A stretch of DNA of 32,000 bases from Nonlabens ponticola. Its GTDB lineage: Bacteria > Bacteroidota > Bacteroidia > Flavobacteriales > Flavobacteriaceae. Within the stretch, counting starts at the first letter, position 1. The number at the start of each line of letters is the position of its first letter. Position numbers and translations under genes: made by a program. The notes below the pieces were generated by a model. The model searched no databases, was not told the DNA's origin, and worked only from the letters and a program-made list of their open reading frames with translations. Below, piece by piece: positions 3,051-31,789 of this stretch. The stretch lies in contig NZ_CP034549.1 of NCBI RefSeq assembly GCF_003966335.1, positions 2,190,001 to 2,222,000 on the forward strand, read 5' to 3'.

Positions 3051-3956
3051 TTATATCTCAAACACTTTACCGTCCAGCGCACAGTGGCTATTTTCAAAAA
3101 TAGGCCTTGCCTCGTCAGTAAACATGTCATAGGACTTGTACCTAGAACTGTAGTGACCTAGAATTAGCATTCCAGCGTTCGCCTGTTTAGCAATGTCTGC
3201 CGCTTGAGCAGCCGTACTGTGTTTTGTTTTTTTGCACAAATGCTCATGAGGTATTAGAAAGGTGCTTTCATGATATAGCGCAGTGACACCTTGAATTTGT
3301 GGAATTATGTCTGGCTTGTAAACAGTATCGCTACAAAATGCATAGCTCTTAGGCGCATCACCATCCGTGGTAAGCTCGTTATTAGGGATGATCTCACCAG
3401 ATTCGGCAACGTAGTCTGCGCCTTTTTTGATACCTCTATAATAGGCTTTATCAACACCATATTCCTCGCAGGCAACTATATCTAGGTGTCGCTCGCCAGG
3501 TTTTTGCTGGAACAGGAATCCATGAGTATACACGCGGTGATCTAGTGGTATGGTAGTTACTTGTATCTGATCATCCTCAAATAGTAGAGTGGCTGTGGTT
3601 TCTACGCTTTCGCGAAAGCGTAATTCAAATGGCATATAGCTGTTGCCCAGCTTCATTTGCAATTCTATCATCTGCTTGATGCCTTTAGGGCCATAAATAT
3701 GCAAGGGCGTTTCACGACCCAGCAGACAAAAAGTGCTGATCAACCCGACTAGCCCATAAACATGATCGCCGTGCAAGTGTGAAATAAATATGTGCTTAAT
3801 GCGCGAAAACTTGACGCCATGCTTGCGCAGCGCCATTTGTGTGCCCTCGCCACAATCGATTAAAAATAAATGACCGCCAGTTTCTAACACTTGTGATGTA
3901 GGACGTGCATTATCTCGTGGTGTGGCGCTGTGGCAACCTAGAATGGTAAGTTTCAA
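3051..3956 (-). CDS. rnz: Ribonuclease Z (tRNA 3' endonuclease, metallo-beta-lactamase fold)
   Basis: 301 aa with N-terminus MKLTILGCHSATP and the HLHGDH zinc motif, of typical RNase Z length. The start codon is TTG (3956..3954). Confidence 0.88.
   Translation of the reverse strand: MKLTILGCHSATPRDNARPTSQVLETGGHLFLIDCGEGTQMALRKHGVKFSRIKHIFISHLHGDHVYGLVGLISTFCLLGRETPLHIYGPKGIKQMIELQMKLGNSYMPFELRFRESVETTATLLFEDDQIQVTTIPLDHRVYTHGFLFQQKPGERHLDIVACEEYGVDKAYYRGIKKGADYVAESGEIIPNNELTTDGDAPKSYAFCSDTVYKPDIIPQIQGVTALYHESTFLIPHEHLCKKTKHSTAAQAADIAKQANAGMLILGHYSSRYKSYDMFTDEARPIFENSHCALDGKVFEI
3606..3619. repeat. Iterated palindrome GCTTTCGCGAAAGC, copy 1 (inside rnz; extended 20-bp palindrome at 3603..3622)
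   Basis: Exact 14-mer. Context is TACGCTTTCGCGAAAGCGTA. It encodes RFRES in RNase Z. Confidence 0.95.
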
Positions 3957-4022
3957 TACTTTTTTTGTGGAAGTTACAATGTGATGTGTCTAGGTATGCG
4001 GTAAAGAAGTATTAAAATCCTC

Positions 4023-4355
4023 CTAGAACCCTAGATCGCGCTCGATTTCTTCCATCTCAATGACATCTTGTGCCTCTTGAATCGTAGGAACCACAAGCAA
4101 CTCATCAGGAATTTCATCTACAGGTACTGCGTCGTTGACAATAACTAGAGACTTTTTGCCGGCTCTATGTGTGTTACTTAAAGACAGATAACATAGTAAA
4201 TCTTGCAAACTCATTTCATTATACTTGAGCAAGTCGATAACCAAATTTTGATCTGCAAAGCCTTCGTGGATTTTAGTCAGGAAGGTGGCAAAGTCGCAAA
4301 CGCCATCTTGATCATCTTGAAGTAAGGTATAGTTATCTTGAACGGTACTAGTCAT
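4023..4355 (-). CDS. Hypothetical acidic protein (possible STAS-like fold)
   Basis: A 110-aa ORF whose start overlaps the pyrB stop by 8 nt (GATGACTAG), suggesting translational coupling. The pattern LVIDL...KKSLVIVND...VVPTIQEAQDVIEME resembles STAS or anti-sigma-antagonist topology; this is only weak recognition. Confidence 0.6.
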   Translation of the reverse strand: MTSTVQDNYTLLQDDQDGVCDFATFLTKIHEGFADQNLVIDLLKYNEMSLQDLLCYLSLSNTHRAGKKSLVIVNDAVPVDEIPDELLVVPTIQEAQDVIEMEEIERDLGF

Positions 4356-5283
4356 CTCGCTTAATTTTTGATGCGATCAAATATAAAACTGCCATGCGAA
4401 TGGCGACACCATTTTCTACTTGATTTAAGATTATTGCCTGATCTGAGTCTGCTACCTCACTGGTTATTTCAACACCACGGTTGATAGGACCTGGATGCAT
4501 GATGACAATTTCCTTATCTAGACTGTCAAGTATCTTGCGCGTCACACCGTATTGCTGGACATATTCACGTACACTAGGAAAATAGCTTATGTCCATACGT
4601 TCGTTTTGTACGCGCAGCATGTTGGCCACATCACACCATTGCAGGGCCTTCTTCAAATTATGTTCAACAAGAACACCTAGGCTCTCAATATGTTTAGGAA
4701 TTAGGGTGGCTGGGCCACAAACCATAACCTCAGCACCTAATTTTTTAAGGCAGTAGATATTTGATAGAGCTACACGACTATGGAGAATATCGCCGACAAT
4801 GACTACTTTTTTACCATCCAGAGATCCTAATTTCTCTTTGATGGAATAACTATCCAACAACGCTTGGGTAGGATGCTCGTGAGCACCATCGCCTGCATTC
4901 ACTATTCTCGCATTCACATTCTTGGAAAGGAACACACCAGCTCCAGGATTGGGGTGACGCATCACGACGATGTCCACTTTCATTGCGAGAATGTTATTGA
5001 CTGTATCAATTAAAGTCTCACCCTTCTTTACAGAACTTTGTGCTGCGCTAAAATTGATAACATCTGCACTTAGTCTCTTTTCGGCTAGTTCAAAACTTAG
5101 CTTGGTACGTGTGGAATTCTCAAAAAATAAATTGGCAATCGTAATGTCTCTCAGTGATGGTACTTTCTTGATAGGTCGATTGATCACTTCCTTAAACTGA
5201 TTTGCTGTAGTATGGATGAGTTCAATATCTTCTCGAGTAAGATATTTGATCCCTAGCAAGTGGTCTACGCTCAGACTGCTCAT
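4348..5283 (-). CDS. pyrB: Aspartate carbamoyltransferase catalytic subunit
   Basis: 311 aa with motifs STRTKLSFE, HEHPTQALLD and MHPGPINRG. Confidence 0.93.
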   Translation of the reverse strand: MSSLSVDHLLGIKYLTREDIELIHTTANQFKEVINRPIKKVPSLRDITIANLFFENSTRTKLSFELAEKRLSADVINFSAAQSSVKKGETLIDTVNNILAMKVDIVVMRHPNPGAGVFLSKNVNARIVNAGDGAHEHPTQALLDSYSIKEKLGSLDGKKVVIVGDILHSRVALSNIYCLKKLGAEVMVCGPATLIPKHIESLGVLVEHNLKKALQWCDVANMLRVQNERMDISYFPSVREYVQQYGVTRKILDSLDKEIVIMHPGPINRGVEITSEVADSDQAIILNQVENGVAIRMAVLYLIASKIKRDD

Positions 5284-5828
5284 GAATTCTCAGTTTTAAG
5301 AAGATAGACTGCATCTACTCCATCGTTTTCTTTCCATGACACCTTGACTTTTTGGTTTCCCAAGGCATCAACTTGCCTACCATTGTAATCTGGCTGGATA
5401 GGTAAATGTCTTGAAAATCTGCGATCGATAAGTGTTAGTAACTCAACGGTTTCAGGACGTCCAAAAGACTGCAAAGCTGTCAGTGCTGCACGAATGCTGC
5501 GACCTGTATAAAGAACATCATCAACGATGACTACATTTTTGTTTTCTAAAATAAAGTCAATTTGAGTGCTATTTGCTTGCAGTGGCTCTTCACCTCTTCG
5601 AAAATCATCTCTATAAAAAGTGATATCTAATTTACCTGTCTTGAGGTTTGAAATATTGTATTCTGATTGAAGCAATCTTGCAATACGATCTAACAGAAAT
5701 GAACCTCGAGGTTGAACACCGATAAGTGCTGTATTTGAAAAATCATCATGATTTTCAATCAACTGACAAACGAGACGATGCAAGGTCATGTCTAGCTGTG
5801 CGGCGTTGAGTAGTGTCTTTTGACTCAT
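5280..5828 (-). CDS. pyrR: Bifunctional pyrimidine regulatory protein PyrR / uracil phosphoribosyltransferase
   Basis: 182 aa with the PRPP-binding loop VVIVDDVLYTGRSIRAAL. An ATGA stop/start overlap with pyrB indicates an operon. Confidence 0.88.
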   Translation of the reverse strand: MSQKTLLNAAQLDMTLHRLVCQLIENHDDFSNTALIGVQPRGSFLLDRIARLLQSEYNISNLKTGKLDITFYRDDFRRGEEPLQANSTQIDFILENKNVVIVDDVLYTGRSIRAALTALQSFGRPETVELLTLIDRRFSRHLPIQPDYNGRQVDALGNQKVKVSWKENDGVDAVYLLKTENS

Positions 5829-5844
5829 TTAAATATGATTGAGT

Positions 5845-5852
5845 CAAAGATA
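5845..5852 (-). promoter_or_regulatory. Candidate -7 box (TATCTTTG) for the pyrR-pyrB operon
   Basis: TAnnTTTG on the minus strand, 16 nt upstream of the pyrR ATG. This implies a very short leader. Confidence 0.35.
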
Positions 5853-5972
5853 CAGTATTTAAAAAACCATTTTAAATTCTAGTTCTGAAACTATTTCTCA
5901 ATAAAATTGAACGCTTATAAGCACAACATAGGGATCTTTTAATTCTTATTTTCACAGTAAATTTTGATCATC

Positions 5973-7496: not shown

Positions 7497-7500
7497 ACGT

Positions 7501-7569
7501 TAGTTATTCGTCATCGATAAGTGGTTATCAGTTATTATTAATGGTAATTCGTTATTCGTTGTAGGTTAT
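7501..7569 (+). repeat. Decayed heptad repeat (NNGTTAT-like, about 10 units)
   Basis: The units read TAGTTAT TCGTCAT CGATAAG TGGTTAT CAGTTAT TATTAAT GGTAAT(T) TCGTTAT TCGTTGT AGGTTAT. They resemble the degenerate 5' flank of the 1851..2046 array, with a one-nt phase slip. Confidence 0.4.
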
Positions 7570-7672
7570 CAGCATATAGCTTGACTCCAGCTATTATAGG
7601 TATTCCATAGTATTGAACTGTCTACCGGATTATTAACGTGTGAAAGTAATCAATACGTCACAATCAAGCCAT

Positions 7673-7707
7673 AAAAAAATCCCTTGCAATTATTTGCAAG
7701 GGATTTT
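7673..7707. terminator. Bidirectional rho-independent terminator (rpsA end and end of the Gly-rich OMP gene)
   Basis: An 11-bp perfect stem (ATCCCTTGCAA 7679..7689 pairing with TTGCAAGGGAT 7694..7704) has a 4-nt loop. It is flanked by A7 on one side and T4 on the other, which gives T7 on the minus strand after the stem. Confidence 0.75.
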
Positions 7708-7731
7708 ATCATTATTCAAATGAAGTGAGAT

Positions 7732-9639
7732 TTACTCTTCTTCTTTTGCTGCTTTCTTAGACTTCTTCTTGGCTGGTGCAGCTTTCACTTTACCTTCCAT
7801 TTGATCTTTCAATGCTTGTAGTTTAGAATTAGCATCACCTAGCGTTGGCTTTTCAGCTTCTTGTTGCTGCTTAGCCGCTTGCTTAACGATTTTTGCTTCT
7901 TCTTCTTTGTGGATTACCATATGTGATCCAACTACACGTTTGAATTCCTTATTGAACTCGATGATCTCGATCTTAGCAGTCTCACCTTTCTTCAATTTAG
8001 TTCCGTCTTCTTTCTCAAGGTGACGTGAAGGAATGAATACTGTGATATCGTCGTTGAAAGTTACAACTGCACCCTTATCAACCATATCAGTAATCTCAAC
8101 CTCGTGAGTTGTTCCTAGACCAAATTCAGCCTCATACTTATCCCATGGGTTATCCTTAGTCTGCTTGTGTCCTAGAGACAACTTGCGACCATTAACATCT
8201 AGTTCAAGAACTACTACATCAAGCTTGTCACCTACCGCACAGAATTCTGATGGGTGCTTCACTTTCTTAGTCCATGATAGGTCAGAGATGTAGATCAATC
8301 CATCAACGCCTTCTTCAAGCTCTACAAACACACCAAAGTTGGTGAAGTTTCTAACGATACCTGTGTGGCGTGAACCAACAGGATACTTAGTTGTGATATC
8401 AGTCCATGGATCTTGTGATAGCTGCTTCATACCAAGAGACATCTTGCGGTCTTCTCTATCAATAGTAAGAACCTCTGCATCGATGATGTCACCTACTTTT
8501 ACAAAGTCACCAGCACTTCTCAAGTGCGTTGACCATGACATTTCAGATACGTGAACGAGTCCTTCAACACCTTCTTCTACCTCTACAAACGCACCGTAGT
8601 CTGCGATGACAACAACCTTACCTTTGACTTTATCGCCTGGTTTGATCTTGTCAGATAGCGCTTCCCATGGGTGAGCCTCTAGTTGCTTCATACCTAACTG
8701 GATACGTGACTTATCTTCATCAAAGTCAAGGATTACCACATTAAGCGTCTGGTCTAGTTCTACCACCTCATTAGGGTGGTTGATACGTGACCATGATAGG
8801 TCAGTAATGTGTACCAGTCCATCAACACCACCTAGATCAACAAACACACCGTAAGAAGTGATGTTCTTCACAACACCTTCCAATACTTGTCCTTTCTCTA
8901 GACGAGAGATGATTTCTTTTTTCTGCTCTTCAATATCTGCCTCGATAAGCGCTTTGTGCGATACAACAACATTCTTGAACTCGTGGTTAATTTTCACCAC
9001 CTTGAATTCCATGCTCTTGTCAACGTATGCATCATAATCACGGATAGGTTTAACGTCAATTTGGGATCCTGGCAAGAATGCCTCAATTCCAAAAACGTCA
9101 ACGATCATACCACCTTTGGTACGACATTTTACATAACCATTTACGATCTCGCCAGTGTCATGTGCATTGTTTACACGTTCCCATGCTTTGATCAAGCGTG
9201 CTTTACGGTGAGACAATACTAGTTGACCTGTGGCGTCTTCACGTACATCAACCAATACCTCAACCTTATCACCTTCTTTAAGGTTCTGGTTGTAACGGAA
9301 CTCGTTGAGTGAGATTACACCTTCAGATTTTGCATTGATGTCGATGATAGCATCACGATCAGTGATTTTGATCACGGTACCCTCAATCACATCGTTATCA
9401 ATAGTGTCTACAAAGTTTTCAGCTACTAGCTTTTCAAAAGCCTTAAGTTGATCTTCGTCTACTTTCTCGATACCTTCACTGTAACGTTCCCAGTCAAAAG
9501 TGTCTAGGAATTCAGTAGGATTTTTTTGTGCTTCAGAAATGGTGACTGGTGTCGCCTTTTCTACCTGCTCTTGAACTTGTTCTTGAGTAACACCATCTTG
9601 TGCTGCCTCTAGTTCTTGTTTTGTTGTTTCTTCAGCCAT
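7732..9639 (-). CDS. rpsA: 30S ribosomal protein S1
   Basis: 635 aa with repeated S1 (OB-fold) modules (GxVxxVxxxGAFVxL-type blocks such as YGVFVDLGGVDGLVHITD and YGAFVEVEEGVEGLVHVSE). It has an acidic N-terminal extension and a Lys-rich tail. Confidence 0.93.
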   Translation of the reverse strand: MAEETTKQELEAAQDGVTQEQVQEQVEKATPVTISEAQKNPTEFLDTFDWERYSEGIEKVDEDQLKAFEKLVAENFVDTIDNDVIEGTVIKITDRDAIIDINAKSEGVISLNEFRYNQNLKEGDKVEVLVDVREDATGQLVLSHRKARLIKAWERVNNAHDTGEIVNGYVKCRTKGGMIVDVFGIEAFLPGSQIDVKPIRDYDAYVDKSMEFKVVKINHEFKNVVVSHKALIEADIEEQKKEIISRLEKGQVLEGVVKNITSYGVFVDLGGVDGLVHITDLSWSRINHPNEVVELDQTLNVVILDFDEDKSRIQLGMKQLEAHPWEALSDKIKPGDKVKGKVVVIADYGAFVEVEEGVEGLVHVSEMSWSTHLRSAGDFVKVGDIIDAEVLTIDREDRKMSLGMKQLSQDPWTDITTKYPVGSRHTGIVRNFTNFGVFVELEEGVDGLIYISDLSWTKKVKHPSEFCAVGDKLDVVVLELDVNGRKLSLGHKQTKDNPWDKYEAEFGLGTTHEVEITDMVDKGAVVTFNDDITVFIPSRHLEKEDGTKLKKGETAKIEIIEFNKEFKRVVGSHMVIHKEEEAKIVKQAAKQQQEAEKPTLGDANSKLQALKDQMEGKVKAAPAKKKSKKAAKEEE

Positions 9640-9757
9640 GTTTGTTGCTGATTAAAATTTGTATTCAAGGTGCGCCGGAAACTTATAGAACTTCCCTTGA
9701 AGATTTTATATAAGTTTTTGATTCCCAAACGGTTTCCGTTTTCTCGATTTGGGCTGG

Positions 9758-9765
9758 CAAAAGTA
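9758..9765 (-). promoter_or_regulatory. Candidate -7 box (TACTTTTG) for rpsA
   Basis: TAnnTTTG on the minus strand about 120 nt upstream of the rpsA ATG. The leader contains a small hairpin, AACGGAAACCGTT. Confidence 0.35.
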
Positions 9766-9824
9766 CAATCTTTTTCAATTAATTCATAGTCCACTTGCCT
9801 GTTATTGAGCAGTTTTGTGGTTAC

Positions 9825-9838
9825 GCTTTCGCGAAAGC
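9825..9838. repeat. Iterated palindrome, copy 2 (intergenic, between the rpsA and DUF1801 promoters)
   Basis: Exact 14-mer. Context is TTACGCTTTCGCGAAAGCATAA. Confidence 0.95.
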
Positions 9839-9852: not shown

Positions 9853-9880
9853 CTATCTTACCATTAAAAGTCTTTTTTTA

Positions 9881-10339
9881 ATGACATCAACCGCAACAAC
9901 ACCAGAGCAATACCTCGACGAATTAACTGAAGAGCGACATCAGGCAGTGCGCAAATTGAGAGATACCGTAAGAGAAAATCTGCCCGACGGGTTTGAGGAA
10001 TCCATGGGTTATGGCATGATTGCTTATCAAGTGCCTTTATCCAGCTATCCTAAAGGTTATCATGCTGGCAAAGAGCCTACACCACTACCTTTTATCAATA
10101 TTGCTTCACAGAAAAATCATATTGCTCTGTATCATATGGGTCTATATTCCAGGCCTGATTTGCTAGACTGGTTCAAAGATGAATTTCCTAAACACAGCAA
10201 GCGAAAACTCGATATGGGAAAGAGCTGCATCCGTTTTAAGAATATTGACGATATTCCCTATGATTTGATAGGCGACTTATGTGGCAAGGTTCATGTGCAG
10301 GATTGGATCAAAGTTTATGAATCAGTAATTAAAAGATAG
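9881..10339 (+). CDS. DUF1801 (YdhG-like) domain protein
   Basis: The ORF in the track starts at a TTG (9815) that overlaps the palindrome and -7 box; the ATG at 9881 (MTSTATTPEQYLDEL...) is more plausible. The sequence pattern EQYLDEL...RHQAVRKLRDTVRENLP...MIAY recalls the DUF1801 family. Confidence 0.65.
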   Translation: MTSTATTPEQYLDELTEERHQAVRKLRDTVRENLPDGFEESMGYGMIAYQVPLSSYPKGYHAGKEPTPLPFINIASQKNHIALYHMGLYSRPDLLDWFKDEFPKHSKRKLDMGKSCIRFKNIDDIPYDLIGDLCGKVHVQDWIKVYESVIKR

Positions 10340-12612: not shown

Positions 12613-13041
12613 ATGATTGAATTGAGTTTACTAGAATTATTGAAACTATCCTGCGATGTAGGTCTTGTCGTTCTTATATGGATTGTGCAATTACTTATCT
12701 ATCCTAGCTTTATCTATTTTGCGGGCGATGGCCTGGCGCGATGGCATACTATTTACACACGCAACATCACTTTTATTGTATTGCCTTTGATGCTGGGTCA
12801 GTTATTGTTATCAGGCTGGCTGTTATTCGGTAATGCAGATTATACAGCTGTGAGAATTGCCGACTTTATTCTTGTGGGAAGCATGTGGGCAAGCACGGCT
12901 TTTTACTACAAGCCACTGCATGAGAAATTGCAAAAGGAGCCGCATCGTAAGGAATTGTGTATAGAGTTGACGACATCCAACTGGTGGCGTGTTGCAGTGT
13001 GGACGGTAATTTTGGTGTTGAATTTTATTGTTATTTGGTGA
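12613..13041 (+). CDS. Hypothetical 4-TM membrane protein
   Basis: A 142-aa ORF with four hydrophobic segments; the family is not recognised with confidence (possibly DUF1772-like). Confidence 0.6.
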   Translation: MIELSLLELLKLSCDVGLVVLIWIVQLLIYPSFIYFAGDGLARWHTIYTRNITFIVLPLMLGQLLLSGWLLFGNADYTAVRIADFILVGSMWASTAFYYKPLHEKLQKEPHRKELCIELTTSNWWRVAVWTVILVLNFIVIW

Positions 13042-13048
13042 TTGATCA

Positions 13049-13155
13049 TTGGAGCTTGGAGCTTGGAGCTTGGAGCTTGGAGCTTGGAACTTGGAACTTG
13101 GAACTTGGAACTTGGAACTTGGAACTTGGAACTTGGAACTTGGAACTTGGAACTT
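13049..13155 (+). repeat. Pure heptanucleotide tandem array (TTGGAGC)x5 (TTGGAAC)x10
   Basis: Direct count: TTGGAGC units start at 13049, 13056, 13063, 13070 and 13077. TTGGAAC units start at 13084 through 13147 in steps of 7. There are no interruptions. Confidence 0.97.
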
Positions 13156-16485: not shown

Positions 16486-16499
16486 GCTTTCGCGAAAGC
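16486..16499. repeat. Iterated palindrome, copy 3 (intergenic, 181 nt upstream of rpoD)
   Basis: Exact 14-mer. Context is TTTTGCTTTCGCGAAAGCGTAAC. Confidence 0.95.
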
Positions 16500-16679: not shown

Positions 16680-17543
16680 ATGAGACAACTCAAAATCACC
16701 AAGCAGGTAACTAATCGTGAGTCAAAATCACTTGACAAATACTTGCAGGACATCAGTAAGATAGACCTGATTACTGCAGAGGAAGAAGTGGAACTCGCGC
16801 AACGTATCAAAAAAGGTGATCAGAGAGCACTTGAGAGATTGACGACTGCAAACTTACGTTTTGTGGTTTCTGTTGCAAAGCAGTATCAAAATCAAGGGCT
16901 TAAATTACCCGATCTTATTAATGAAGGAAATGCCGGACTTGTAAAGGCTGCCAAAAGGTTTGATGAAACTCGCGGATTTAAATTCATATCATACGCTGTA
17001 TGGTGGATACGCCAGTCGATCTTACAGGCACTAGCAGAGCAGTCACGTATCGTGCGATTACCTCTTAATAAAATTGGTTCTATCAACAAGATTAATAAAG
17101 CATTTTCACACCTTGAGCAACTGCACGAGCGTCCACCATCGCCAGAAGAGCTAGCTAATGAGTTAGATATGACGGTAAGTGATGTGAAGCAATCGCTTAA
17201 AAATGCGGGACGTCACGTATCGATGGATGCACCTCTTAAAGAAGGTGAGACATCAAATCTATATGACGTTGTGCGCAGTGGTGAGTCACCTAATCCTGAT
17301 CGTGTATTGTTGCACGAGTCACTAACGCTAGAGATTACTCGCGCGCTGGAGACGCTTTCTCAAAAGGAGGCAGATGTGATCTCGCTATACTTCGGTATCG
17401 GGAACCAGCAGCCTATGAGTCTGGAAGAAATAGGTGAAACCTTTGACCTTACTCGTGAGCGCGTGCGCCAGATCAAGGAAAAAGGTATCAAGAGACTGCG
17501 TCAAAACAGCCGCAGTAAGATCTTGAAGTCTTACCTAGGATAA
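16680..17543 (+). CDS. rpoD: Primary RNA polymerase sigma factor (sigma-70 family, Bacteroidetes SigA)
   Basis: 287 aa with region 2 ([35 protein letters not shown]) and region 4.2 ([18 protein letters not shown]). Confidence 0.93.
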
Positions 17544-21877: not shown

Positions 21878-22369
21878 TTGGATAACATAGTAAAGAAAAC
21901 GGCTGCAATTTACGGTATCATAGGCGCACTGATTACCATAGGTAGCTATGTTTATATCTGGCAAACCAGGGATTTCGACAACCTATCGATAGGCATTGGT
22001 TTATTAATTGTTCATTTGATTCTTGCCGTTGGCGCCCAGATTCACAGTAAGAAAAAGTTGGGTGGCTACCTTAGTTTAAAGCAGGCTGTGCTTGCCTTTG
22101 TGGCTTGTGCAGCGATCATGTTTTTATCTGAGGCTATTATAAATTACTTGATTTACGTGGTTTGGGATCCAGCGGCACAGGAACAAGTGGCTCAAATGAC
22201 CGCAGAGTTGGCTGAACAACGTCGAGCAAATTCAAATCAGGAAATTGAAGAAGCAACCATAGATTACACCATTGCTGGCTATGCACAGGCAGCCGTTTCA
22301 AAATTACTGATCTATACCGTTTTTGGTATCATTGCTGGACTCATCATTAAGAAAAACCCACCAGCCTAG
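21878..22369 (+). CDS. DUF4199-like membrane protein
   Basis: 163 aa with a TTG start and four hydrophobic helices. It sits immediately upstream of, and overlaps by 1 nt, a GT2 gene, as I recall for DUF4199 genes in Flavobacteriia. Confidence 0.6.
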   Translation: MDNIVKKTAAIYGIIGALITIGSYVYIWQTRDFDNLSIGIGLLIVHLILAVGAQIHSKKKLGGYLSLKQAVLAFVACAAIMFLSEAIINYLIYVVWDPAAQEQVAQMTAELAEQRRANSNQEIEEATIDYTIAGYAQAAVSKLLIYTVFGIIAGLIIKKNPPA

Positions 22370-23319
22370 TGGATCTATCCATCGTCATACCGCTACTCAA
22401 CGAGGCGCAATCACTACCTGAATTGCAGGAATGGATCGATCGCGTACTAGCCACCACGACGCTAGAATACGAGGTCATTTACATAGACGATGGCAGTACA
22501 GATGCAAGTTGGACATTTTTGAGTCAGCTTTCGCGAAAGCGTAACAACATATCAGCCATACAATTCCTTTCTAACTACGGTAAATCTCAAGCGCTACATG
22601 CAGGATTTGCTCGTGCGCAAGGCAATGTGGTCGTGACCATGGATGCAGATTTGCAGGACAGTCCAGAAGAGATTCCTGCACTTTATGATATGATCGCAAA
22701 CGACGGTTATGACCTGGTAAGTGGCTGGAAGAAGAAGCGTTACGACTCAGTCCTTTCTAAAAATTTACCAAGTAAATTATTCAATTGGGCAGCGCGAAGA
22801 ACTAGTGGTGTCAAGCTCAATGACTTTAATTGTGGTCTTAAGGCCTATCGAAAGGATGTGGTAAAAAATATCGACGTGCATGGCGAGATGCATAGGTATA
22901 TTCCTGTACTAGCGTCAAACGCTGGTTATACCAACATCACCCAAAAAGTCGTCCAGCATCAGGCTCGCAAATATGGTGAGACAAAATTTGGTTATGACAG
23001 GTTCATAAAAGGTTTTCTGGATCTGGTGACGATTGCTTTTATCTCAAGATTTGGTAAGCGTCCCATGCACTTGTTTGGTACAATTGGGTTTGTCATGTTT
23101 ATTTTGGGATTTGTGATTGCTGCCTACACAGGCGCTTCAAAACTCTACAAAATGGCAGCCGATTTACCGTATGAATTAGTGACACGCAATCCATGGTTTT
23201 ACATCGCATTGACTTCCATGATTTTGGGTAGTTTGTTCTTTATCGCTGGATTTTTAGGAGAATTGATCATTCGCACAGGACCCACTACAGACCGCTACAA
23301 AATAGCCGATAAACAGTAG
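22369..23319 (+). CDS. Family 2 glycosyltransferase (polyprenyl-phosphate glycosyltransferase type), core copy
   Basis: 316 aa with a GTG start. Motifs include LSIVIPLLNE, YIDDGSTD, NYGKSQAL, MDADLQDSPEE and two C-terminal TM helices. Confidence 0.85.
   Translation: MDLSIVIPLLNEAQSLPELQEWIDRVLATTTLEYEVIYIDDGSTDASWTFLSQLSRKRNNISAIQFLSNYGKSQALHAGFARAQGNVVVTMDADLQDSPEEIPALYDMIANDGYDLVSGWKKKRYDSVLSKNLPSKLFNWAARRTSGVKLNDFNCGLKAYRKDVVKNIDVHGEMHRYIPVLASNAGYTNITQKVVQHQARKYGETKFGYDRFIKGFLDLVTIAFISRFGKRPMHLFGTIGFVMFILGFVIAAYTGASKLYKMAADLPYELVTRNPWFYIALTSMILGSLFFIAGFLGELIIRTGPTTDRYKIADKQ
22527..22540. repeat. Iterated palindrome, copy 4 (inside the core GT2 gene)
   Basis: Exact 14-mer. Context is TCAGCTTTCGCGAAAGCGTAAC. 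It encodes QLSRKR. Confidence 0.95.
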
Positions 23320-23385: not shown

Positions 23386-25266
23386 ATGACCGCTAGGTTT
23401 TTTCTACTAAGTATCTTCTTCTCTATTTTTTCAACACACGCAAGCGCACAAAACCAATTTGAAATCGAGTTCCCTTATGGTAATGAACGCGGTATCGCAT
23501 GTCAAGTTTTTGAACAAGCATTCCAGAACAAGCCTAAGGAAACGTCATTTGTTATCAAGCGAGAATCCAACAAGCTATTTTTTGAGACTAACGATCCTAA
23601 ATGGTTCAAGCAATTATTTAAAAAATCTAAAGACGGTATCGCGGTAGATATAGTTTCAAAAGATCGTTATGCCTGTGAGACGAGTGTTGAGCCATCACAG
23701 ATTAAAGGAAAATTACTCAAACCAGTTTATGCCGGCGATCTTAAGCGAGGTTTGAAACCACATGAACAAAACCGCTATCGCGTCGAGGTAGGCACCATAC
23801 CTATCTCAATGCTCAAGAGTGATCTTGAATTCAACATCCTTTTTCTTAATAATAATAAGTTGTGTAAGTATTATACGATCTACAACCTAGAATCCTATCC
23901 TTGGGGTTTGCTGGATATGGGTGTTTATCTGGATTCCATTACCTATAAAAACGATAAGATTGTCACCCAAAACGAGCAAGCGGTTACTCGATACAAGACG
24001 CTGCAATTCATCATACCGTTTGAGAAAAATAAATCGGTTTATGACTCGTCAGACATCAAGCCATTGTACGATTCCTTGCGCCTGACAGATTTTAATATCA
24101 AGACCATTGATATAAAAGCCTATGCCAGTGTAGAAGGTAGCAAGCAGCGCAATATGGAATTGCAACAAGAGCGTGGCAGCAGTATTGCTGCTTCTCTACA
24201 ATCCTTTCAATCACCAGAAATTGAAACCAACATCACCACTTCTGAAAATTGGGTCGAGTTCTTCAATGATGTGAAAAATACCTCTTATGCTACCTTAACT
24301 TCTAAAAGCAAAGAGCAAATAAAAGCTGCACTGACTGGTTCTACCGCAAACGAATTAGAACCAATCCTAGCGCAACACCGCAAGGCAGTTGTGACCATGG
24401 AATTGGACAAAATTGATGTCTACAAAAACAAATCTATAAATGAGCTCACAAGTCTATTTAATACCAGCATCGCTACCGACGAGCTGGATGAAGCAAGAAT
24501 AATTCAAAATTCACTCCTAGAAAAAATTAGAATTGCGGCATCACCAGAATCGCTTGAAGGCATTGAGGTTCCCAACCAGAAGAAGTACATTGATTTCATG
24601 AATAAAAACTTGATGTATGACTACTTGATTGATGTGAGAAAATCACTGATCGTTTATAACAAACTGCAGGAACTAGAGAAACAAGATCCCAAAAACAAAA
24701 GAATTCAATACAACCTTGCGGTACTCAAATTCATCTTATGGCGCAATAACGCTCTTGATGTAAAACCACAGGACTTCAAGAAGGAAATCAAATCGTTGAC
24801 CAACTATGGTATCAATCCATCGCTGGTGGATCGCATGATGATCAATTATCACATCGTCAACGCAGAGCGTGAAATGCGCAAACGCAATTACAATGAAAAA
24901 GACAAGTCTGTACTCAATATCCTGAGCACCTACAACCGCGTACCGCTTACTGATCAAGATTACTTGAGTCTAGCTCAATTCTTGACATATTATGCCCAAA
25001 ATATGGAAGCAGTAAAACTACTAGCTCCACGCGTGCAGGAAATTACCATTGATGAAGATTTGCTGTTCTATTATTTAAACTTAACACTAATTGATAAGCG
25101 ACTCACTCAAACTAATGCGTATCGCACGATTCTATTGAACGCTTCAAACCTCAATCAAGAGCGCTTTTGTAAACTCTTCAATCCATCACTGGAAGGTGGT
25201 GTTACATTTCAGCTGCTAGAGGATGGTTACCTTAAGAATAGCTATTGTGAGAATTGCGTTAACTAG
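23386..25266 (+). CDS. Hypothetical secreted protein (626 aa)
   Basis: It has a signal peptide (MTARFFLLSIFFSIFSTHASAQ). A central segment, IKAYASVEGSKQRNMELQQERGSSIAASL, faintly resembles an OmpA-like motif. The C-terminal half is helical-repeat-like. Confidence 0.65.
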   Translation: MTARFFLLSIFFSIFSTHASAQNQFEIEFPYGNERGIACQVFEQAFQNKPKETSFVIKRESNKLFFETNDPKWFKQLFKKSKDGIAVDIVSKDRYACETSVEPSQIKGKLLKPVYAGDLKRGLKPHEQNRYRVEVGTIPISMLKSDLEFNILFLNNNKLCKYYTIYNLESYPWGLLDMGVYLDSITYKNDKIVTQNEQAVTRYKTLQFIIPFEKNKSVYDSSDIKPLYDSLRLTDFNIKTIDIKAYASVEGSKQRNMELQQERGSSIAASLQSFQSPEIETNITTSENWVEFFNDVKNTSYATLTSKSKEQIKAALTGSTANELEPILAQHRKAVVTMELDKIDVYKNKSINELTSLFNTSIATDELDEARIIQNSLLEKIRIAASPESLEGIEVPNQKKYIDFMNKNLMYDYLIDVRKSLIVYNKLQELEKQDPKNKRIQYNLAVLKFILWRNNALDVKPQDFKKEIKSLTNYGINPSLVDRMMINYHIVNAEREMRKRNYNEKDKSVLNILSTYNRVPLTDQDYLSLAQFLTYYAQNMEAVKLLAPRVQEITIDEDLLFYYLNLTLIDKRLTQTNAYRTILLNASNLNQERFCKLFNPSLEGGVTFQLLEDGYLKNSYCENCVN

Positions 25267-25311: not shown

Positions 25312-25334
25312 TAGACTATTTGACCTACAATTTT

Positions 25335-27050
25335 ATGGACAAGGAACATATATTAAAAGTCGCTCAAGCATGGACGCAAGCACCATTTGACGCGCAAACC
25401 ATTGCAACGACACAACAACTTATTGACTCACAGTCTGATGAGTACCTAGAGAGTTTTTATAAAGATCTAGAATTTGGTACTGGTGGCATGCGAGGTATCA
25501 TGGGAATAGGCACCAACCGCATCAATAAGTACACACTAGGCAAAAACACTCAAGGCCTCGCGACTTATCTCAAGACCAGTTTTCCTGGCGAGCAGCTCAA
25601 GGTTGCCATCGCTTATGATTGCCGCCACAACAGCAAGGAATTGGCACAAGTAGTCGCACAGGTTTTGAGCGCTAACGATATCCAAGTATTACTGTTTGAA
25701 GATTTAAGGCCTACTCCACTATTATCTTACACGGTTAAAGCTCGCAATTGTCACGCAGGTATTGTGCTAACTGCAAGTCATAATCCACCAGAATATAATG
25801 GTTACAAAGTGTACTGGCAGGATGGTGGTCAACTGGTACCACCGCAGGATAAAGAACTGTTGCAAACCATTAATGATACCCAATTTGCCGACATCAAATT
25901 CGATGGTGACAACGATACAATCGAATTGTTGGGCGATGATGCTGATGCAGCTTTTATCAAAGACAGCGTTAAGGCTGGAAAAGTAGCTGGCGATGTAGAT
26001 CGCAGTAAGGTAAAAGTAGTTTTTACTAGTCTTCACGGTACGAGCATTACCATTTTACCAGATACACTTGAAGCTGCTGGATATACCGATGTAAACATAG
26101 TACAAGAACAAGCAAAGCCTGATGGCGATTTCCCAACCGTGGAATCACCCAATCCTGAAGAACCAGAAGCACTGGCACTTGCCGTGCAATTGGCCAACAA
26201 AATTCATGCAGACATCGTCATAGGCACAGATCCTGACAGCGATCGATTAGGTATTGCCGTGCGCGACAATGACCATAAATTATTGCTGCTCAACGGTAAT
26301 CAGACCATGATTGCCATGACTGCTTTTTTACTAGAACAGACAGAACTGACGAATAAGAAAGATCCTTTTATAGGATCCACCATCGTGAGTACGCCCATGA
26401 TGAAAGATCTAGCAGCTGGTTTTAATGTTGAGTGTAAAGAAGGCCTTACCGGTTTCAAATGGATCGCGCAGATGATCCAGAATCATCCAAATCAAGATTT
26501 CATTGGTGGCGGCGAGGAAAGTTTTGGATATATGGTAGGCGATTTTGTTCGTGACAAGGATGCCGTTACCGCAAGTTTATTGGCTTGTGAACTGTTAGCT
26601 TTCGCGAAAGCTAAAAAAACAACACCCTACAACTACCTACTGGAATTGTATGTCAAATACGGTTGTTACCAGGAACGCCTTGTGAGCCTAGTCAAAAAAG
26701 GAATAAGCGGCGCGCAGGAAATCAAGCAAATGATGATCGAATTACGTGATAATCCACCACAGGAAATCGCAGGATTTAAGGTGTCCCGTATTGAGGATTA
26801 TCAATCAGGTAGCTCTCTAAATACAGCAACGGGAAACAAAGAAAATATCGAGTTACCATCATCAAATGTGCTTATTTTTTACCTAGAAAACGGCAGTAAA
26901 ATAGCGGCTAGACCTAGCGGTACAGAGCCTAAAATCAAATTTTACATCTCAGTAAAAGAAGAGCTGGATCACGCTGATAATTATGATGTTGTAAAGAGTC
27001 AATTGGATCAACAAATAGACGCTATTCTTAACAGCCTACAAGTCAATTAA
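25335..27050 (+). CDS. Phosphoglucomutase/phosphomannomutase family protein (alpha-D-phosphohexomutase)
   Basis: Active-site loop TASHNPPEYNGYK, metal loop GTDPDSDR, sugar loop GGEESFG and phosphate loop RPSGTEPK. The ATG at 25335 is preferred over the track's TTG at 25320. Confidence 0.9.
   Translation: MDKEHILKVAQAWTQAPFDAQTIATTQQLIDSQSDEYLESFYKDLEFGTGGMRGIMGIGTNRINKYTLGKNTQGLATYLKTSFPGEQLKVAIAYDCRHNSKELAQVVAQVLSANDIQVLLFEDLRPTPLLSYTVKARNCHAGIVLTASHNPPEYNGYKVYWQDGGQLVPPQDKELLQTINDTQFADIKFDGDNDTIELLGDDADAAFIKDSVKAGKVAGDVDRSKVKVVFTSLHGTSITILPDTLEAAGYTDVNIVQEQAKPDGDFPTVESPNPEEPEALALAVQLANKIHADIVIGTDPDSDRLGIAVRDNDHKLLLLNGNQTMIAMTAFLLEQTELTNKKDPFIGSTIVSTPMMKDLAAGFNVECKEGLTGFKWIAQMIQNHPNQDFIGGGEESFGYMVGDFVRDKDAVTASLLACELLAFAKAKKTTPYNYLLELYVKYGCYQERLVSLVKKGISGAQEIKQMMIELRDNPPQEIAGFKVSRIEDYQSGSSLNTATGNKENIELPSSNVLIFYLENGSKIAARPSGTEPKIKFYISVKEELDHADNYDVVKSQLDQQIDAILNSLQVN
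26598..26611. repeat. Iterated palindrome, copy 5 (inside pgm; extended 18-bp palindrome at 26596..26613)
   Basis: Exact 14-mer. Context is TAGCTTTCGCGAAAGCTA. It encodes AFAKA. Confidence 0.95.
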
Positions 27051-28873
27051 TGAATTACTTTAAGGAAATCCTGCAGTACGCAAAGCCTTACAAGGCCTAT
27101 GGTATAGGGAATATTATTAGTAACATATTTTACGCGCTGTTCAGTACATTGTCATTTTTGGCACTTATTCCTGTACTGCAAGTACTTTTTGAGGAAACGG
27201 ATCAAGTTTTTGAAAAACCAGTGTGGACTGGTATCGCCACGGCTCGTGATTTCCTGGAAGGTTATGTGAACTACTATGTGTCTGTGGTGGCAGATAACGA
27301 CAAACAACAGGCTTTGATCATCATGATTGTGCTTGTGCTAAGTATGTTTTTACTCAAGAATGTATTCTCGTACCTAGGTATGTATTTTATAACATTCCTG
27401 CGCAATGGTGTGGTGCGAGATCTGCGCAACGCGATGTATCAAAAGATTGTTCATTTGCCAATATCATTCTTTTCTGAGAAGCGCAAAGGTGATGTCATCG
27501 CTAGATCAACGAGTGACATCCATGAGGTGCAAAGCAGTTTTCTATCCATTCTCGAACTTATCGTCAAGGAACCGCTCAACATCATATTTACTTTAGGCGC
27601 CATGTTATTGTTGAGCATCAAGCTCACGATCTTTGTTTTGGTGTTCATTCCTGTAAGTGGTTACATTATCTCGCTGGTAGGTAAAAAATTAAAAAGCAAA
27701 TCGCTCAAGGTGCAGCGCGAGCAAGGAACATTTTTATCTCTGCTGGAAGAAACTCTTGGTGGGCTTAAGGTTATCAAAGGATTCAATGCTGAAAGTCGAA
27801 TGACTGATACTTTTCAAGACAGTACGCAGCGACTGTATCGTCATAGCAATAGTTTGAGTTTGCGTAAAAATCTAGCCAGTCCAGTGAGTGAATTTCTAGG
27901 TATTCTCGTGATCGGTGTTCTCCTATGGTTTGGTGGTAGAATGGTACTGTTGGATGGCACTATCAACGGTTCTACATTCATTACCTTTATGGGACTTGCT
28001 TACGGTATTTTGACGCCAGCAAAAGCGCTTTCAAAGGCAAGTTATGACGTCAAGAAAGGTAATGCCAGTGCAGAGCGTGTTCTGCAGATTTTGCATACCA
28101 AAAACCACATAAAAGATCGTGACGATGCTGTTGAGATATCCGCTTTCGCGAAAGCGGTACAAATCAAAAACCTATCCTTTGCCTATGAGGATGAGAACGT
28201 CTTGACCAATTTCTCGCTAGACATTCCTATTGGGTCCACCGTGGCGCTGGTAGGTCAATCAGGTAGTGGAAAAAGTACCATAGCAAATCTTGTAACCCGA
28301 TTTTATGATGTGAGTGAAGGAACGATCGAGATCGATGGTCATAATATTAAGGATGTGACTCTTAAAAGTTTGCGAGATCAGATGGCAATTGTGACGCAAG
28401 ACTCTATTCTTTTTAACGATACGGTCGCAGTCAACGTGGCACTGAGCAATAAAAATGCAAGCAATGAAGAAGTCATCGAGGCACTCAAAATCGCTAACGC
28501 ATGGGAATTTGTATCGCAACTACCAGAAGGTATCCATACCAACATAGGTGATAGCGGTAATAAATTAAGTGGTGGTCAAAAACAGCGATTGAGCATTGCC
28601 CGCGCCGTTCTTAAAAATGCACCAATTCTAGTACTCGACGAGGCGACAAGTGCTCTGGATACTGAAAGTGAACGACTGGTTCAAGATGCGCTTGAAAAAG
28701 TCATGAAAGACCGTACGTCTATTGTAATCGCTCACCGATTGAGTACCATTCAAAAAGCAGATCACATCGTGGTCATGAGCCGTGGCGAGATTGTAGAACA
28801 AGGAACTCACGAGGAATTGATTGCACAACAAGGTGCGTATGCTAATCTTGTGAATATGCAGAGTTTGGCTTAG
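27050..28873 (+). CDS. ABC transporter permease/ATPase fusion (MsbA/lipid exporter-like)
   Basis: 607 aa with a 6-TM N-terminal domain, Walker A GQSGSGKST, signature LSGGQKQR and Walker B ILVLDEATSALD. A TAATG overlap with the pgm stop is present. Confidence 0.9.
   Translation: MNYFKEILQYAKPYKAYGIGNIISNIFYALFSTLSFLALIPVLQVLFEETDQVFEKPVWTGIATARDFLEGYVNYYVSVVADNDKQQALIIMIVLVLSMFLLKNVFSYLGMYFITFLRNGVVRDLRNAMYQKIVHLPISFFSEKRKGDVIARSTSDIHEVQSSFLSILELIVKEPLNIIFTLGAMLLLSIKLTIFVLVFIPVSGYIISLVGKKLKSKSLKVQREQGTFLSLLEETLGGLKVIKGFNAESRMTDTFQDSTQRLYRHSNSLSLRKNLASPVSEFLGILVIGVLLWFGGRMVLLDGTINGSTFITFMGLAYGILTPAKALSKASYDVKKGNASAERVLQILHTKNHIKDRDDAVEISAFAKAVQIKNLSFAYEDENVLTNFSLDIPIGSTVALVGQSGSGKSTIANLVTRFYDVSEGTIEIDGHNIKDVTLKSLRDQMAIVTQDSILFNDTVAVNVALSNKNASNEEVIEALKIANAWEFVSQLPEGIHTNIGDSGNKLSGGQKQRLSIARAVLKNAPILVLDEATSALDTESERLVQDALEKVMKDRTSIVIAHRLSTIQKADHIVVMSRGEIVEQGTHEELIAQQGAYANLVNMQSLA
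28142..28155. repeat. Iterated palindrome, copy 6 (inside the ABC exporter gene; extended 18-bp palindrome at 28140..28157)
   Basis: Exact 14-mer. Context is CCGCTTTCGCGAAAGCGG. It encodes AFAKA. Confidence 0.95.
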
Positions 28874-28876
28874 GTT

Positions 28877-30538: not shown

Positions 30539-30540
30539 AA

Positions 30541-30570
30541 AAATCTGCAAGAAATAATTCCTGCAGATTT
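30541..30570. terminator. Bidirectional terminator hairpin between convergent genes
   Basis: AAATCTGCA 30541..30549 pairs with TGCAGATTT 30562..30570. It is flanked by an A-run upstream (30537..30543) and T3 downstream. Confidence 0.55.
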
Positions 30571-30590
30571 CTAATAATATTTATCACTTA

Positions 30591-31181
30591 TTATAGTACG
30601 AGACTAAGTGCTATGATTACTTGTTCTGGTCTGGTATCGATTCTTACATTGTCAAACATATCATTTGCATAACGCGCTTCATTCTCATTGAGACCACGCT
30701 CATAACGCACGTCAACACCTAGATTACCTAGATTCACGCCTACTCCAAATTGAAGACCAACCGTGAAATCATCTTGTGCATCACGCAGATCAAAGTTTAC
30801 TGCACCAGTATCAAAATCTGTATCTAGAATATATTGCAGCGATGGACCAGCAAAAACATGCAATGGACCTAACACCTCAAGGCCTACCAATATTGGAGCG
30901 TCAAGTTTTTTAACCTCAAAGTCACCAGCGTTGTACTCACTATTTAATTTTGTGTATATAAGTTCTGGTCTGAAATATATCGGGCCAAGATCTACTTTAC
31001 CAAAAACACCGACATGATATCCTACTCGATCGTCTGGATTTTCAGTAATGTTATTAAAATTGTCTTGAAAATCACCAACAGACCCATAGTTGAGTCCACC
31101 TTTGATCCCGAAGCCACCATCTGTCTGGGCATAGCTCAATCCTGCTAACAATAGGGTTGCTGCAATAAATAAATTTTTCAT
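30591..31181 (-). CDS. Small outer-membrane beta-barrel (porin-family) protein
   Basis: 196 aa with signal peptide MKNLFIAATLLLAGLSYAQ. Alternating-residue beta strands and Gly/aromatic girdles continue to the C-terminus. Confidence 0.75.
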   Translation of the reverse strand: MKNLFIAATLLLAGLSYAQTDGGFGIKGGLNYGSVGDFQDNFNNITENPDDRVGYHVGVFGKVDLGPIYFRPELIYTKLNSEYNAGDFEVKKLDAPILVGLEVLGPLHVFAGPSLQYILDTDFDTGAVNFDLRDAQDDFTVGLQFGVGVNLGNLGVDVRYERGLNENEARYANDMFDNVRIDTRPEQVIIALSLVL

Positions 31182-31322
31182 AGTATAAGGGTTTATAAAA
31201 GCAAAACGCTTAGTTCATAATTTTATTGACTAATAATTATGCCAAAAACTTAAAGACGGTATCTTTCTTCAAGGATAAAGTTAATTAGTTCCCTAAATAT
31301 TTCGGATATTGCTAGAATAGTA

Positions 31323-31342
31323 TATATTTGTACATACAATTA
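31323..31342 (+). promoter_or_regulatory. Candidate marR promoter -7 box (TATATTTG) overlapping a palindromic operator-like motif (TTGTACATACAATTA)
   Basis: TAnnTTTG lies at 31323..31330. The 15-nt motif at 31328..31342 recurs 14/15 at 31806..31820, upstream of the yceI-like gene. Confidence 0.4.
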
Positions 31343-31357
31343 ATACAAATACAATAG

Positions 31358-31789
31358 ATGAGTAATAAGGTTGTTGATATTCCGCTTTCGCGAAAGCTAA
31401 TCACCACGCTAATTAAAAAAGGCGCAGGGATGACTGAAGCTATTGCGAGTGTCTTGAAAGAGGAAAAACTGACAATCCAACAATTCAATGTGTTGCGTAT
31501 TCTACGTGGCCGAAAAGGCGAACCTGCAACGCTACAAGATGTAAGTAAGAATATGTTACATGCAAATTCTAATACCACACGTGTTATTGACAAGCTTGTT
31601 GACAAGAAGTATGTTGAGCGCGTACAATGTTGTGATGATAGAAGGCAAATCCAGCTCACTATTACAAAAACAGGCCTTTCCCTACTTAAAAGATTGGATC
31701 AAAAAGTAGATGATAAAGAAAATGCCTTGCTTGATAATATGTCTTTGAATGACAAAAAGACTTTGACCGATCTATTGGAAAAACTATAA
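31358..31789 (+). CDS. MarR-family transcriptional regulator
   Basis: 143 aa with a winged-HTH pattern: LTIQQFNVLRILRG...ATLQDVSKNMLHANSNTTRVIDKLVDKKYVERV...DRRQIQLTITKTG. Confidence 0.85.
   Translation: MSNKVVDIPLSRKLITTLIKKGAGMTEAIASVLKEEKLTIQQFNVLRILRGRKGEPATLQDVSKNMLHANSNTTRVIDKLVDKKYVERVQCCDDRRQIQLTITKTGLSLLKRLDQKVDDKENALLDNMSLNDKKTLTDLLEKL
31384..31397. repeat. Iterated palindrome, copy 7 (inside marR)
   Basis: Exact 14-mer. Context is TCCGCTTTCGCGAAAGCTAA. It encodes PLSRKL. Confidence 0.95.

Follow-up and report, generated by a model that had tools for sequence, protein, structure and literature searches.

Few short words are known that recur hundreds of times in bacterial chromosomes at the expense of the proteins encoded there, namely the DNA uptake sequences (DUS), the uptake signal sequences (USS), Chi, the FtsK orienting polar sequences (KOPS) and the highly iterated palindrome HIP1. 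Each of them has led to insights into how DNA is taken up or repaired, or how chromosomes are organised. HIP1 of the cyanobacteria has been argued to be selected, a link to nucleoid structure being proposed (PMC5861425), and methyltransferases are known that recognise sequences internal to it (PMC4390886). USS and DUS are present in thousands of copies, lie in open reading frames with frame preferences and peptide enrichment, are distributed relatively evenly, are under-represented in newly acquired DNA and receive a contribution from AT-rich flanks (PMC7811141, PMC2817400, PMC2397512). Natural competence occurs in the Riemerella lineage, and a preference for own DNA is documented in R. columbina, for which the signal has not been identified (PMC7965970). 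Here, we analyse a stretch of 32,000 nucleotides from Nonlabens ponticola, a member of the Flavobacteriaceae (contig NZ_CP034549.1, positions 2,190,001 to 2,222,000; in the following, the window), which holds seven exact copies of the 14-bp palindrome GCTTTCGCGAAAGC. We find that this palindrome marks the chromosomal DNA of one clade as a signature that is either selected or actively restored. It consists of a dyad core between symmetric flanks, and its copies are regularly spaced.

Abundance, conservation and spacing of the palindrome

The seven copies start at positions 3606, 9825, 16486, 22527, 26598, 28142 and 31384, and an exact search recovers all of them where the initial annotation of the window had placed them; no further copy at up to two mismatches is present in the 32 kb. 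That annotation had also given about 6e-5 chance copies under an independent-base model, an estimate whose arithmetic is right, and had proposed a comparison with a third- to fifth-order model. Markov chains of order 1 to 5 trained on the window predict 1e-6 to 1e-2 copies in 32 kb, and dinucleotide-preserving shuffles of the window (n = 100) contain no copy at all. With seven copies observed against at most 0.01 expected, chance occurrence is rejected and the massive over-representation that had been claimed is real. Chains of these orders were used because a maximal-order test on nested words is uninformative in 32 kb, where TTCGCGAA is found inside the motif only.

When 135 copies from related genomes are pooled, the core becomes a 16-bp perfect palindrome, CGCTTTCGCGAAAGCG, i.e., (C)GCTTTCGCGAAAGC(G). 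The half-site GCGAAAGC is barely enriched outside full copies, and its occurrences there are mostly decayed full copies. The hexamer TCGCGA occurs 12 times in the window, five times outside the motif, which is near expectation, and in the pooled DNA it is neither depleted nor enriched outside the copies (73 observed, approximately 78 expected in total). Half-site and hexamer together thus identify the full dyad as the unit. The hexamer count lends no support to restriction pressure of the NruI type or to hexamer avoidance.

The 14-mer was sought in one genome for each of 185,579 species, which yielded at least 120 stretches, mostly blocks of 8 kb together with some shorter contigs and contig ends. 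Among the matches listed, 85 blocks with 137 copies belong to Dokdonia, Nonlabens or unnamed Flavobacteriaceae, many of these blocks having two or three copies. A single copy each is found in 29 blocks from unrelated bacteria and in six blocks from Aquimarina, Leeuwenhoekiella, Altibacter and Flavobacterium sp., the flanks in these six being of the same kind as in the main group. If the matches listed represent about 1% of all, a sampling fraction that we infer, the number of unrelated matches is at the level of chance.

Loci centred on the phosphoglucomutase (PGM) gene give a less biased estimate of density than loci picked for the motif. The PGM encoded in the window (25335-27047) shows 100% identity to the enzyme of N. 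ponticola on a 2.87-Mb contig, while an exact-protein search with the ABC transporter of the window gave no match. Five other Nonlabens species carry 5-9 copies each per 21.7 kb in these loci. The look at sister species and genera that the initial annotation had proposed thus finds the motif in Nonlabens and, among the matches listed, in Dokdonia. Including the window, six Nonlabens species have 43 copies in 140.6 kb, or one per 3.3 kb; the outgroup Pontimicrobium has none in 21.7 kb. The density in Nonlabens and Dokdonia is about one copy per 3 kb, in genes and spacers alike. Genome-wide numbers are extrapolations, and the PGM-centred Nonlabens density extrapolates to approximately 900 copies per genome. 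The sampled motif-bearing blocks are spread along complete chromosomes, e.g., at 0.88, 1.38, 2.15 and 2.82 Mb in Dokdonia sp. R86516.

The positions of the copies are strongly conserved. When the window is aligned with the DNA of five Nonlabens species, to which it is about 70% identical, 16 out of 17 aligned motif sites are intact and the 17th is off by one base, while only 0.7-4.7% of other 14-mers are intact in the same alignments. Independent locus pairs exhibit the same pattern. The 642 kb of ingroup DNA contain 144 exact copies as against 13 variants with one mismatch and 14 with two; three of the 13 are CpG transitions, and a symmetric (compensatory) double change within the core is not found among the two-mismatch variants listed. 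Copies are held invariant while neighbouring DNA diverges to saturation. This clade-wide occurrence at conserved positions is in line with the HIP1-like or DUS/USS-like behaviour supposed at the outset. For Nonlabens and Dokdonia, which share too few overlapping loci, two cases have a copy in the same spacer at different distances, and elsewhere the site is not shared.

The copies also keep a distance from each other. All 89 intervals from one copy to the next measure 856 bp or more, whereas random placement of the same copy number in the same loci leads to about 20 intervals under 800 bp. The observed spacing was matched in 0 of 5000 simulations, with a coefficient of variation of 0.48 as compared to 0.85 under the null model. 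Some of the 89 intervals are orthologous duplicates, which by far cannot account for an effect of this size. Intervals in phage contigs have a similar lower limit (841 bp). Copies are at least approximately 0.85 kb apart, a mutual repulsion that would not be predicted for a motif spreading by purely local conversion, gene conversion being one of the roles initially proposed. Taken together, there is little doubt that the motif is a lineage-specific genomic signature which acts at the DNA level and is maintained.

Origin and placement of the copies

Sorted by reading frame, 56 copies read A-F-A-K-A, 29 L-S-R-K and 26 F-R-E-S, and 33 are intergenic. A second gene caller assigns 118 copies to coding sequence and 55 to spacers, that is, about two thirds lie in coding sequence, in all three frames, and about one third between genes. 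Co-directional genes enclose 34 of the 55 intergenic copies, divergent genes 16 and convergent genes 5. The use of all three frames as well as of spacers agrees with the DNA-level action that had been suggested for the motif. In the window, the copies are placed as follows:

Copy 1, 3606..3619: inside the tRNase Z / metallo-beta-lactamase gene 3051..3956 (minus strand), read R-F-R-E-S, flanks ctac and gtaa.
Copy 2, 9825..9838: between two divergent genes, rpsA (minus strand, 7732..9639) and a DUF1801 gene (plus strand, 9878..10339), at 186 bp upstream of where rpsA starts; the site is also occupied in Nonlabens sp. BBFL7 (locus L073, 5824).
Copy 3, 16486..16499: in a spacer, 180 bp ahead of the sigma-70 gene of rpoD type (plus strand, 16680..17543); kept in N. 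agnitus (locus L164, 151).
Copy 4, 22527..22540: inside the family-2 glycosyltransferase (GT2) gene 22369..23319 (plus strand), read L-S-R-K; kept in N. marinus, N. dokdonensis, N. agnitus and Hel1_33_55.
Copy 5, 26598..26611: inside the PGM gene 25335..27050 (plus strand), read A-F-A-K-A; kept in four Nonlabens species, with a one-mismatch variant in N. dokdonensis.
Copy 6, 28142..28155: inside the ABC transporter gene 27050..28873 (plus strand), read A-F-A-K-A; kept in 5 of 5 other Nonlabens species.
Copy 7, 31384..31397: codons 9-13 of the MarR-family gene 31358..31789 (plus strand), read L-S-R-K; kept in N. marinus and N. agnitus, missing in Hel1_33_55.

Alignments with orthologues that lack the motif tell how the copies arose. 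The PGM peptide A-Q-A-K-A of outgroup genera is A-F-A-K-A in Nonlabens, the ABC transporter has changed from KKDFNSNI, as in the outgroup, to SAFAKAV at copy 6, and the GT2 protein from NLAQKSD, again as in the outgroup, to SLSRKRD at copy 4, in each case without an indel. In an RluA-like gene, a copy was gained only in the lineage of N. agnitus and Hel1_33_55, where HPVAQK or HPVTLK was turned into HPLSRK, likewise without an indel; this gain took about eight substitutions and no intermediate was seen. At 4 of the 4 in-gene copies checked against motif-less orthologues the reading frame is intact. In the PGM gene of N. ponticola, the codons downstream of the motif are free of G. These replacements show a DNA-level pressure strong enough to change amino acids.

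They also decide the question of mobile DNA. A multi-copy inverted repeat could be what is left of a small mobile element, or mark its ends, for instance those of a miniature inverted-repeat transposable element (MITE), a repetitive extragenic palindrome (REP/REPIN) or the terminus of an insertion sequence (IS), and some pairs of copies do show a weak similarity of their flanks (65-80% over 29-40 nt). Yet the copies bring no extra DNA as compared to motif-less orthologues, frames are preserved, positions are conserved across species, two thirds of the copies are coding, and neither target-site duplications nor a transposase are found near the copies in the window. Substitution in place without indels excludes an insertion of the MITE type. 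Together with the lack of a long shared flank, it upholds the initial judgement that the copies are no MITE or IS ends, and we regard this explanation as effectively refuted.

Origin in place in many unrelated genes is, on the other hand, what a neutral drive would produce, with no benefit to the cell. Near-matches would be turned into the motif, and mutated copies repaired, by a correction process similar to very-short-patch repair or by an orphan methyltransferase and its partner nuclease, with CGCG or TCGCGA as their target. The scarcity of one-mismatch variants and the 3 CpG transitions among the 13 of them fit this idea, as does the association of HIP1 with methyltransferases that recognise HIP1-internal sequences (PMC4390886). 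Such a purely local process, however, predicts Poisson spacing, whereas close pairs are wholly missing. TCGCGA is at expectation outside the motif, and a new copy requires about eight substitutions, with no intermediates seen. We consider a neutral drive improbable.

Several further features of the window and its relatives were recorded. Two intergenic heptamer tandem arrays, (ATGTGGT)x19 at 1850-2045 and (TTGGAAC)x15 at 13021-13155, are both preceded by a similar leader, TTGGTGATTGAT(T/C)ATT, and other Nonlabens loci have comparable arrays of short period (an octamer in L162, 19568-19670, and a heptamer in L012, 7071-7132). They could be phase-variable or regulatory repeats and are unrelated to the palindrome. 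Approximately 150 bp upstream of rpsA (window 9640-9790; L073 5880-6030) are conserved between N. ponticola and Nonlabens sp. BBFL7 far above the neighbouring spacer. This conservation could reflect an rpsA leader or autoregulatory RNA; no Rfam family matches the stretch in the window. A 626-aa protein encoded at 23386-25266 has an N-terminus that resembles a signal peptide by eye and has no Pfam match. It is conserved beside PGM in N. marinus, N. agnitus and Hel1_33_55, but N. dokdonensis, N. spongiae and Pontimicrobium have a replacement at this place. In N. marinus alone, an MmeI-family restriction-modification gene is inserted downstream of the rpoD-type sigma gene (locus L161, 463-3192), and this 2.7-kb insert is free of the palindrome.

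Symmetric flanks, phages and possible readers

The initial annotation had proposed a 22-bp consensus, TTAC...GTAA, around the core, and the 135 pooled copies uphold it: T occurs in 61% at -4 and in 70% at -3, A in 44% at -2 and C in 82% at -1, while the mirror side has G in 82% at +14 and AA at +16/+17. The flanks quoted for the window copies are as described. Farther out, the 5' flank is T-rich with some G and only 2-10% C, and the 3' flank is A-rich with some C and only 2-10% G. This composition pattern is dyad-symmetric, spans approximately 60 bp overall and fades about 25-30 bp either side of the core. Intergenic copies show it just as copies in any of the reading frames do, irrespective of the strand of the gene, and it is lacking around 26 chance copies from unrelated bacteria. 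A one-sided feature viewed in two orientations could not give so deep a depletion. Hence the statement that no longer element is shared by the copies stands in part: beyond about 22 bp no sequence is shared around them, but every copy lies within the composition pattern.

Within the 5' flank, T is preferred at positions -13, -10, -7, -4 and -3. A codon artefact was considered as the source of this 3-nt periodicity, as the wobble positions of AFAKA coincide with the T positions, and was rejected, since intergenic copies prefer T at the same positions. The preference is thus a property of the DNA. The flanks differ slightly between genera, with Dokdonia preferring TAC..GTA and Nonlabens being mixed. 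In Nonlabens, positions -2 and +15 are complementary in 29 copies, compared to 17 expected from base frequencies (p=2e-4), and in Dokdonia there is an excess of complementarity at -1/+14 (p=0.004). This excess is partly confounded by the genus dialects, yet persists inside each genus. A neutral drive leaves the strand-asymmetric flanks of 25-30 bp unexplained.

Single copies with typical C-poor/G-poor flanks were also noted in other Flavobacteriaceae, i.e., in Aquimarina (L071 7055; L110 157 and 1090), Leeuwenhoekiella (L030, L112), Altibacter (L107) and L101. One site is conserved between two Aquimarina species; of a second site, one species has an intact copy and its relative a degenerate one. 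The density is apparently low in Aquimarina, Leeuwenhoekiella and Altibacter, and the motif system may include genera other than Dokdonia and Nonlabens in this sparser form.

A palindrome with a possible stem of 5-9 bp can fold, its flanks are unstructured by composition, and some complementarity reaches beyond the core. It might therefore act as a hairpin in RNA or single strands, as a terminator, pause, processing or stability site in transcripts of either strand. The observations speak against such a role in several ways. There is no U-tract; two thirds of the copies are in coding sequence in all frames and only 5 of 55 intergenic ones lie between convergent genes; folding energies are near those of shuffled sequences; and no Rfam family was matched in the window. 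The stem is invariant without compensatory changes, which points to recognition of sequence rather than structure. An intrinsic terminator in particular is rejected, as the 3' flank is A-rich with T at 13-25% and the context is mostly coding sequence and 5' regions, with few convergent spacers. Altogether, a transcript hairpin is very improbable.

The flanks bear also on a Chi-like signal working in both directions, where a helicase-nuclease would be stopped or switched from either side, leaving a G/T-rich 3' tail for RecA and marking self DNA. Chi occurs about once per 4.5 kb in E. coli, and RecA prefers GT-rich DNA. The density of one copy per 3-5 kb is similar, the spacing is even, and the part preserved on either strand would be the 5' flank, which is rich in G/T and poor in C. 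Moreover, the motif ends with GCGAAAGC on each strand, and d(GCGAAAGC) is an unusually stable DNA mini-hairpin. Wild-type lambda is not known to carry Chi, and two cultured Nonlabens phages are in the same way without the motif (see below). Known Chi sites are nevertheless only 5-8 nt long, asymmetric and co-oriented with replication; the half-site is not enriched alone; and folding predictions give weak hairpins (-3 to -7 kcal/mol, z-scores +0.5 to -1.8). A Chi-like signal therefore seems quite improbable to us.

The distribution of the motif over phage DNA is informative. The 16-mer is found in 40 stretches of IMG/VR, including several low-GC contigs that have two or three copies per 11-14 kb stretch with typical flanks. 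One motif-bearing family of siphovirus type encodes a tape measure protein, a major head protein and a portal; a contig that shares motif sites and flanks with it has a tyrosine integrase, and other contigs have Mu-type portals. The motif-bearing contigs are genuine phages and, by integrase and Mu-type portals, belong to temperate types. Close cultured relatives of them were not found. We further note that in the uncultured temperate phages L150 (IMGVR_UViG_3300039191_000376), L126, L140 and L124 the motif has near-host spacing and lies also inside structural genes. It could serve as a marker of host assignment and residence time for Flavobacteriaceae prophages.

The cultured Nonlabens phages P12024S and P12024L (L167, L168), each of about 35.7 kb and with no integrase annotated, have 0 copies even at two mismatches, where the density of the host would predict about ten. 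From the copies in temperate phages and the lack of copies in these two, it follows that the motif probably accumulates in chromosome-resident DNA and not in all DNA that replicates in these cells. Neutral drive does not explain why two phages replicating in Nonlabens lack the motif. As a side observation, P12024L encodes a 2OG-Fe oxygenase, a methyltransferase and a glucosyltransferase annotated as beta-glucosyl-HMC-alpha-glucosyltransferase, a gene set that suggests hypermodified DNA.

As the unit is the whole dyad, neither the half-site nor a hairpin of arbitrary sequence, we infer that it is read as duplex by a protein of two-fold symmetry, so that a dimeric duplex-binding protein is probably the reader. 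The footprint of such a homodimer would reach into the flanks. By analogy with the DUS of Neisseriaceae and the USS of Pasteurellaceae, the copies may tag the cell's own chromosomal DNA for exchange, as an uptake or recombination signal; we give this role a rough probability of 0.35. One tag per fragment of a few kb would suffice, and from this the even spacing and the missing close pairs would follow. Copies would accumulate in DNA which is resident in the chromosome and recombines there, in agreement with temperate phages having the motif and the two cultured Nonlabens phages lacking it. Related genera would share the core with slight differences in the flanks, in the manner of dialects. Tentatively, the motif might then be the recognition tag of an as yet undescribed DNA-exchange system in marine Flavobacteriaceae, the first uptake or self-recognition signal outside the Proteobacteria and the first perfect dyad read by a dimeric receptor. 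If this were true, abundant flavobacteria of the ocean, such as Dokdonia and Nonlabens, would be naturally transformable and would prefer exchange with their own kind.

A number of points weigh against a tag for DNA exchange. No known uptake signal is as long or as sparse as this perfect palindrome; DUS and USS are asymmetric words of 9-12 bp that have about one copy per kb (approximately 3 times denser) and often form inverted terminator pairs, whereas our motif is not associated with terminators and is rare between convergent genes (5/55 intergenic). The role of DUS and USS is proven by uptake experiments and a known competence machinery, while no competence is known for Nonlabens or Dokdonia. 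The density and flank statistics come largely from loci picked for containing the motif. The excess complementarity outside the core hints that intrastrand pairing or arm-to-arm correction plays a part. Finally, the strict dyad, conserved positions and regular spacing fit a site of chromosome architecture equally well.

Under the latter explanation, the copies are binding sites of a dimeric protein for chromosome organisation or segregation and form regularly spaced anchors of the nucleoid, comparable to ParB/parS, Noc and the Noc-binding sites (NBS), SlmA and the SlmA-binding sites (SBS), or MatP/matS. A perfect dyad of 14-16 bp with an extended symmetric footprint, regular spacing without close pairs, positions conserved over long divergence and sampled blocks scattered along complete chromosomes would all be expected of such sites, and resident prophages have the motif while the two cultured Nonlabens phages do not. 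The known systems have about 70 NBS, about 50 SBS and 23 matS. The approximately 900 copies per genome extrapolated here exceed these counts more than tenfold. Such sites are usually degenerate, but exact copies of our motif outnumber one-mismatch variants 11 to 1. The TTTC block is 1 bp nearer to the dyad than in parS or NBS, and tight binding inside many coding regions would obstruct transcription. HIP1, which is argued to be selected and linked to nucleoid structure (PMC5861425), offers a precedent. On balance, we regard nucleoid anchoring as a close, though somewhat less probable, rival of the exchange tag.

Relation to known iterated sequences

In the open-access full text searched, no mention of the motif sequence or of any such palindrome in Dokdonia or Nonlabens was found, consistent with the initial impression that no flavobacterial equivalent has been described. 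The motif would add a new iterated word in a different phylum, in cultivable and ecologically important marine bacteria. Its features are unusually clean, i.e., an exact 16-bp dyad, long symmetric flanks, a hard minimum spacing and the contrast between resident DNA and the cultured Nonlabens phages. They provide a concrete 40-bp probe, TTTTKNTRWTTAC-GCTTTCGCGAAAGC-GTAAWYANMAAAA, for pull-down, uptake and chromatin immunoprecipitation (ChIP) experiments, a marker of DNA residence time in these genomes, and possibly a handle for the genetic manipulation of Dokdonia and Nonlabens.

Among dyads bound by chromosomal proteins, parS and the Noc-binding site are similar in length (14-16 bp), perfect in symmetry, chromosomal and partly located inside genes. 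The half-sites of our motif have a T-T-T-C ... G-A-A-A flavour as in parS and NBS. Those sites differ by having a few to about 70 regionally restricted copies instead of hundreds, by tolerating mismatches and by a spacing between half-site and dyad that is off by 1 bp. Chi is comparable in density, also occurs in genes and marks own DNA in a way that phages can lack, but it is 5-8 nt long, asymmetric, oriented with replication and read as single-stranded DNA.

With HIP1 (GCGATCGC), the flavobacterial motif has in common that it is a short perfect palindrome, hyper-abundant relative to k-mer expectation, in genes as well as spacers. HIP1 sites too are conserved between genomes beyond background and distributed non-randomly, with their function unresolved (PMC5861425, PMC4390886). 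The two differ in sequence, which is unrelated, in phylum and in core length (8 bp for HIP1, 14-16 bp here). HIP1 can exceed one copy per gene, whereas the flavobacterial motif, at about one per 3 kb, is several-fold sparser. The long strand-asymmetric flanks and the minimum spacing of about 0.85 kb were not found reported for HIP1. HIP1 has a periodicity of 10-90 kb along the chromosome; here stretches of up to 32 kb were examined, and a short-range repulsion was seen.

With DUS and USS, the motif shares a large excess of exact copies over variants, an occurrence common to related genera with slight dialects, a placement in open reading frames in several frames that alters peptides, a relatively even spacing and AT-rich flanks (PMC7811141, PMC2817400, PMC2397512, PMC3630211). 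DUS and USS are also missing from DNA that has not long been resident in the chromosome; the flavobacterial motif is absent from the two cultured Nonlabens phages and present in temperate-phage contigs. The motif behaves like HIP1 and DUS/USS and is a member of neither family, as sequence, phylum, length, symmetry, flanks and minimum spacing differ.

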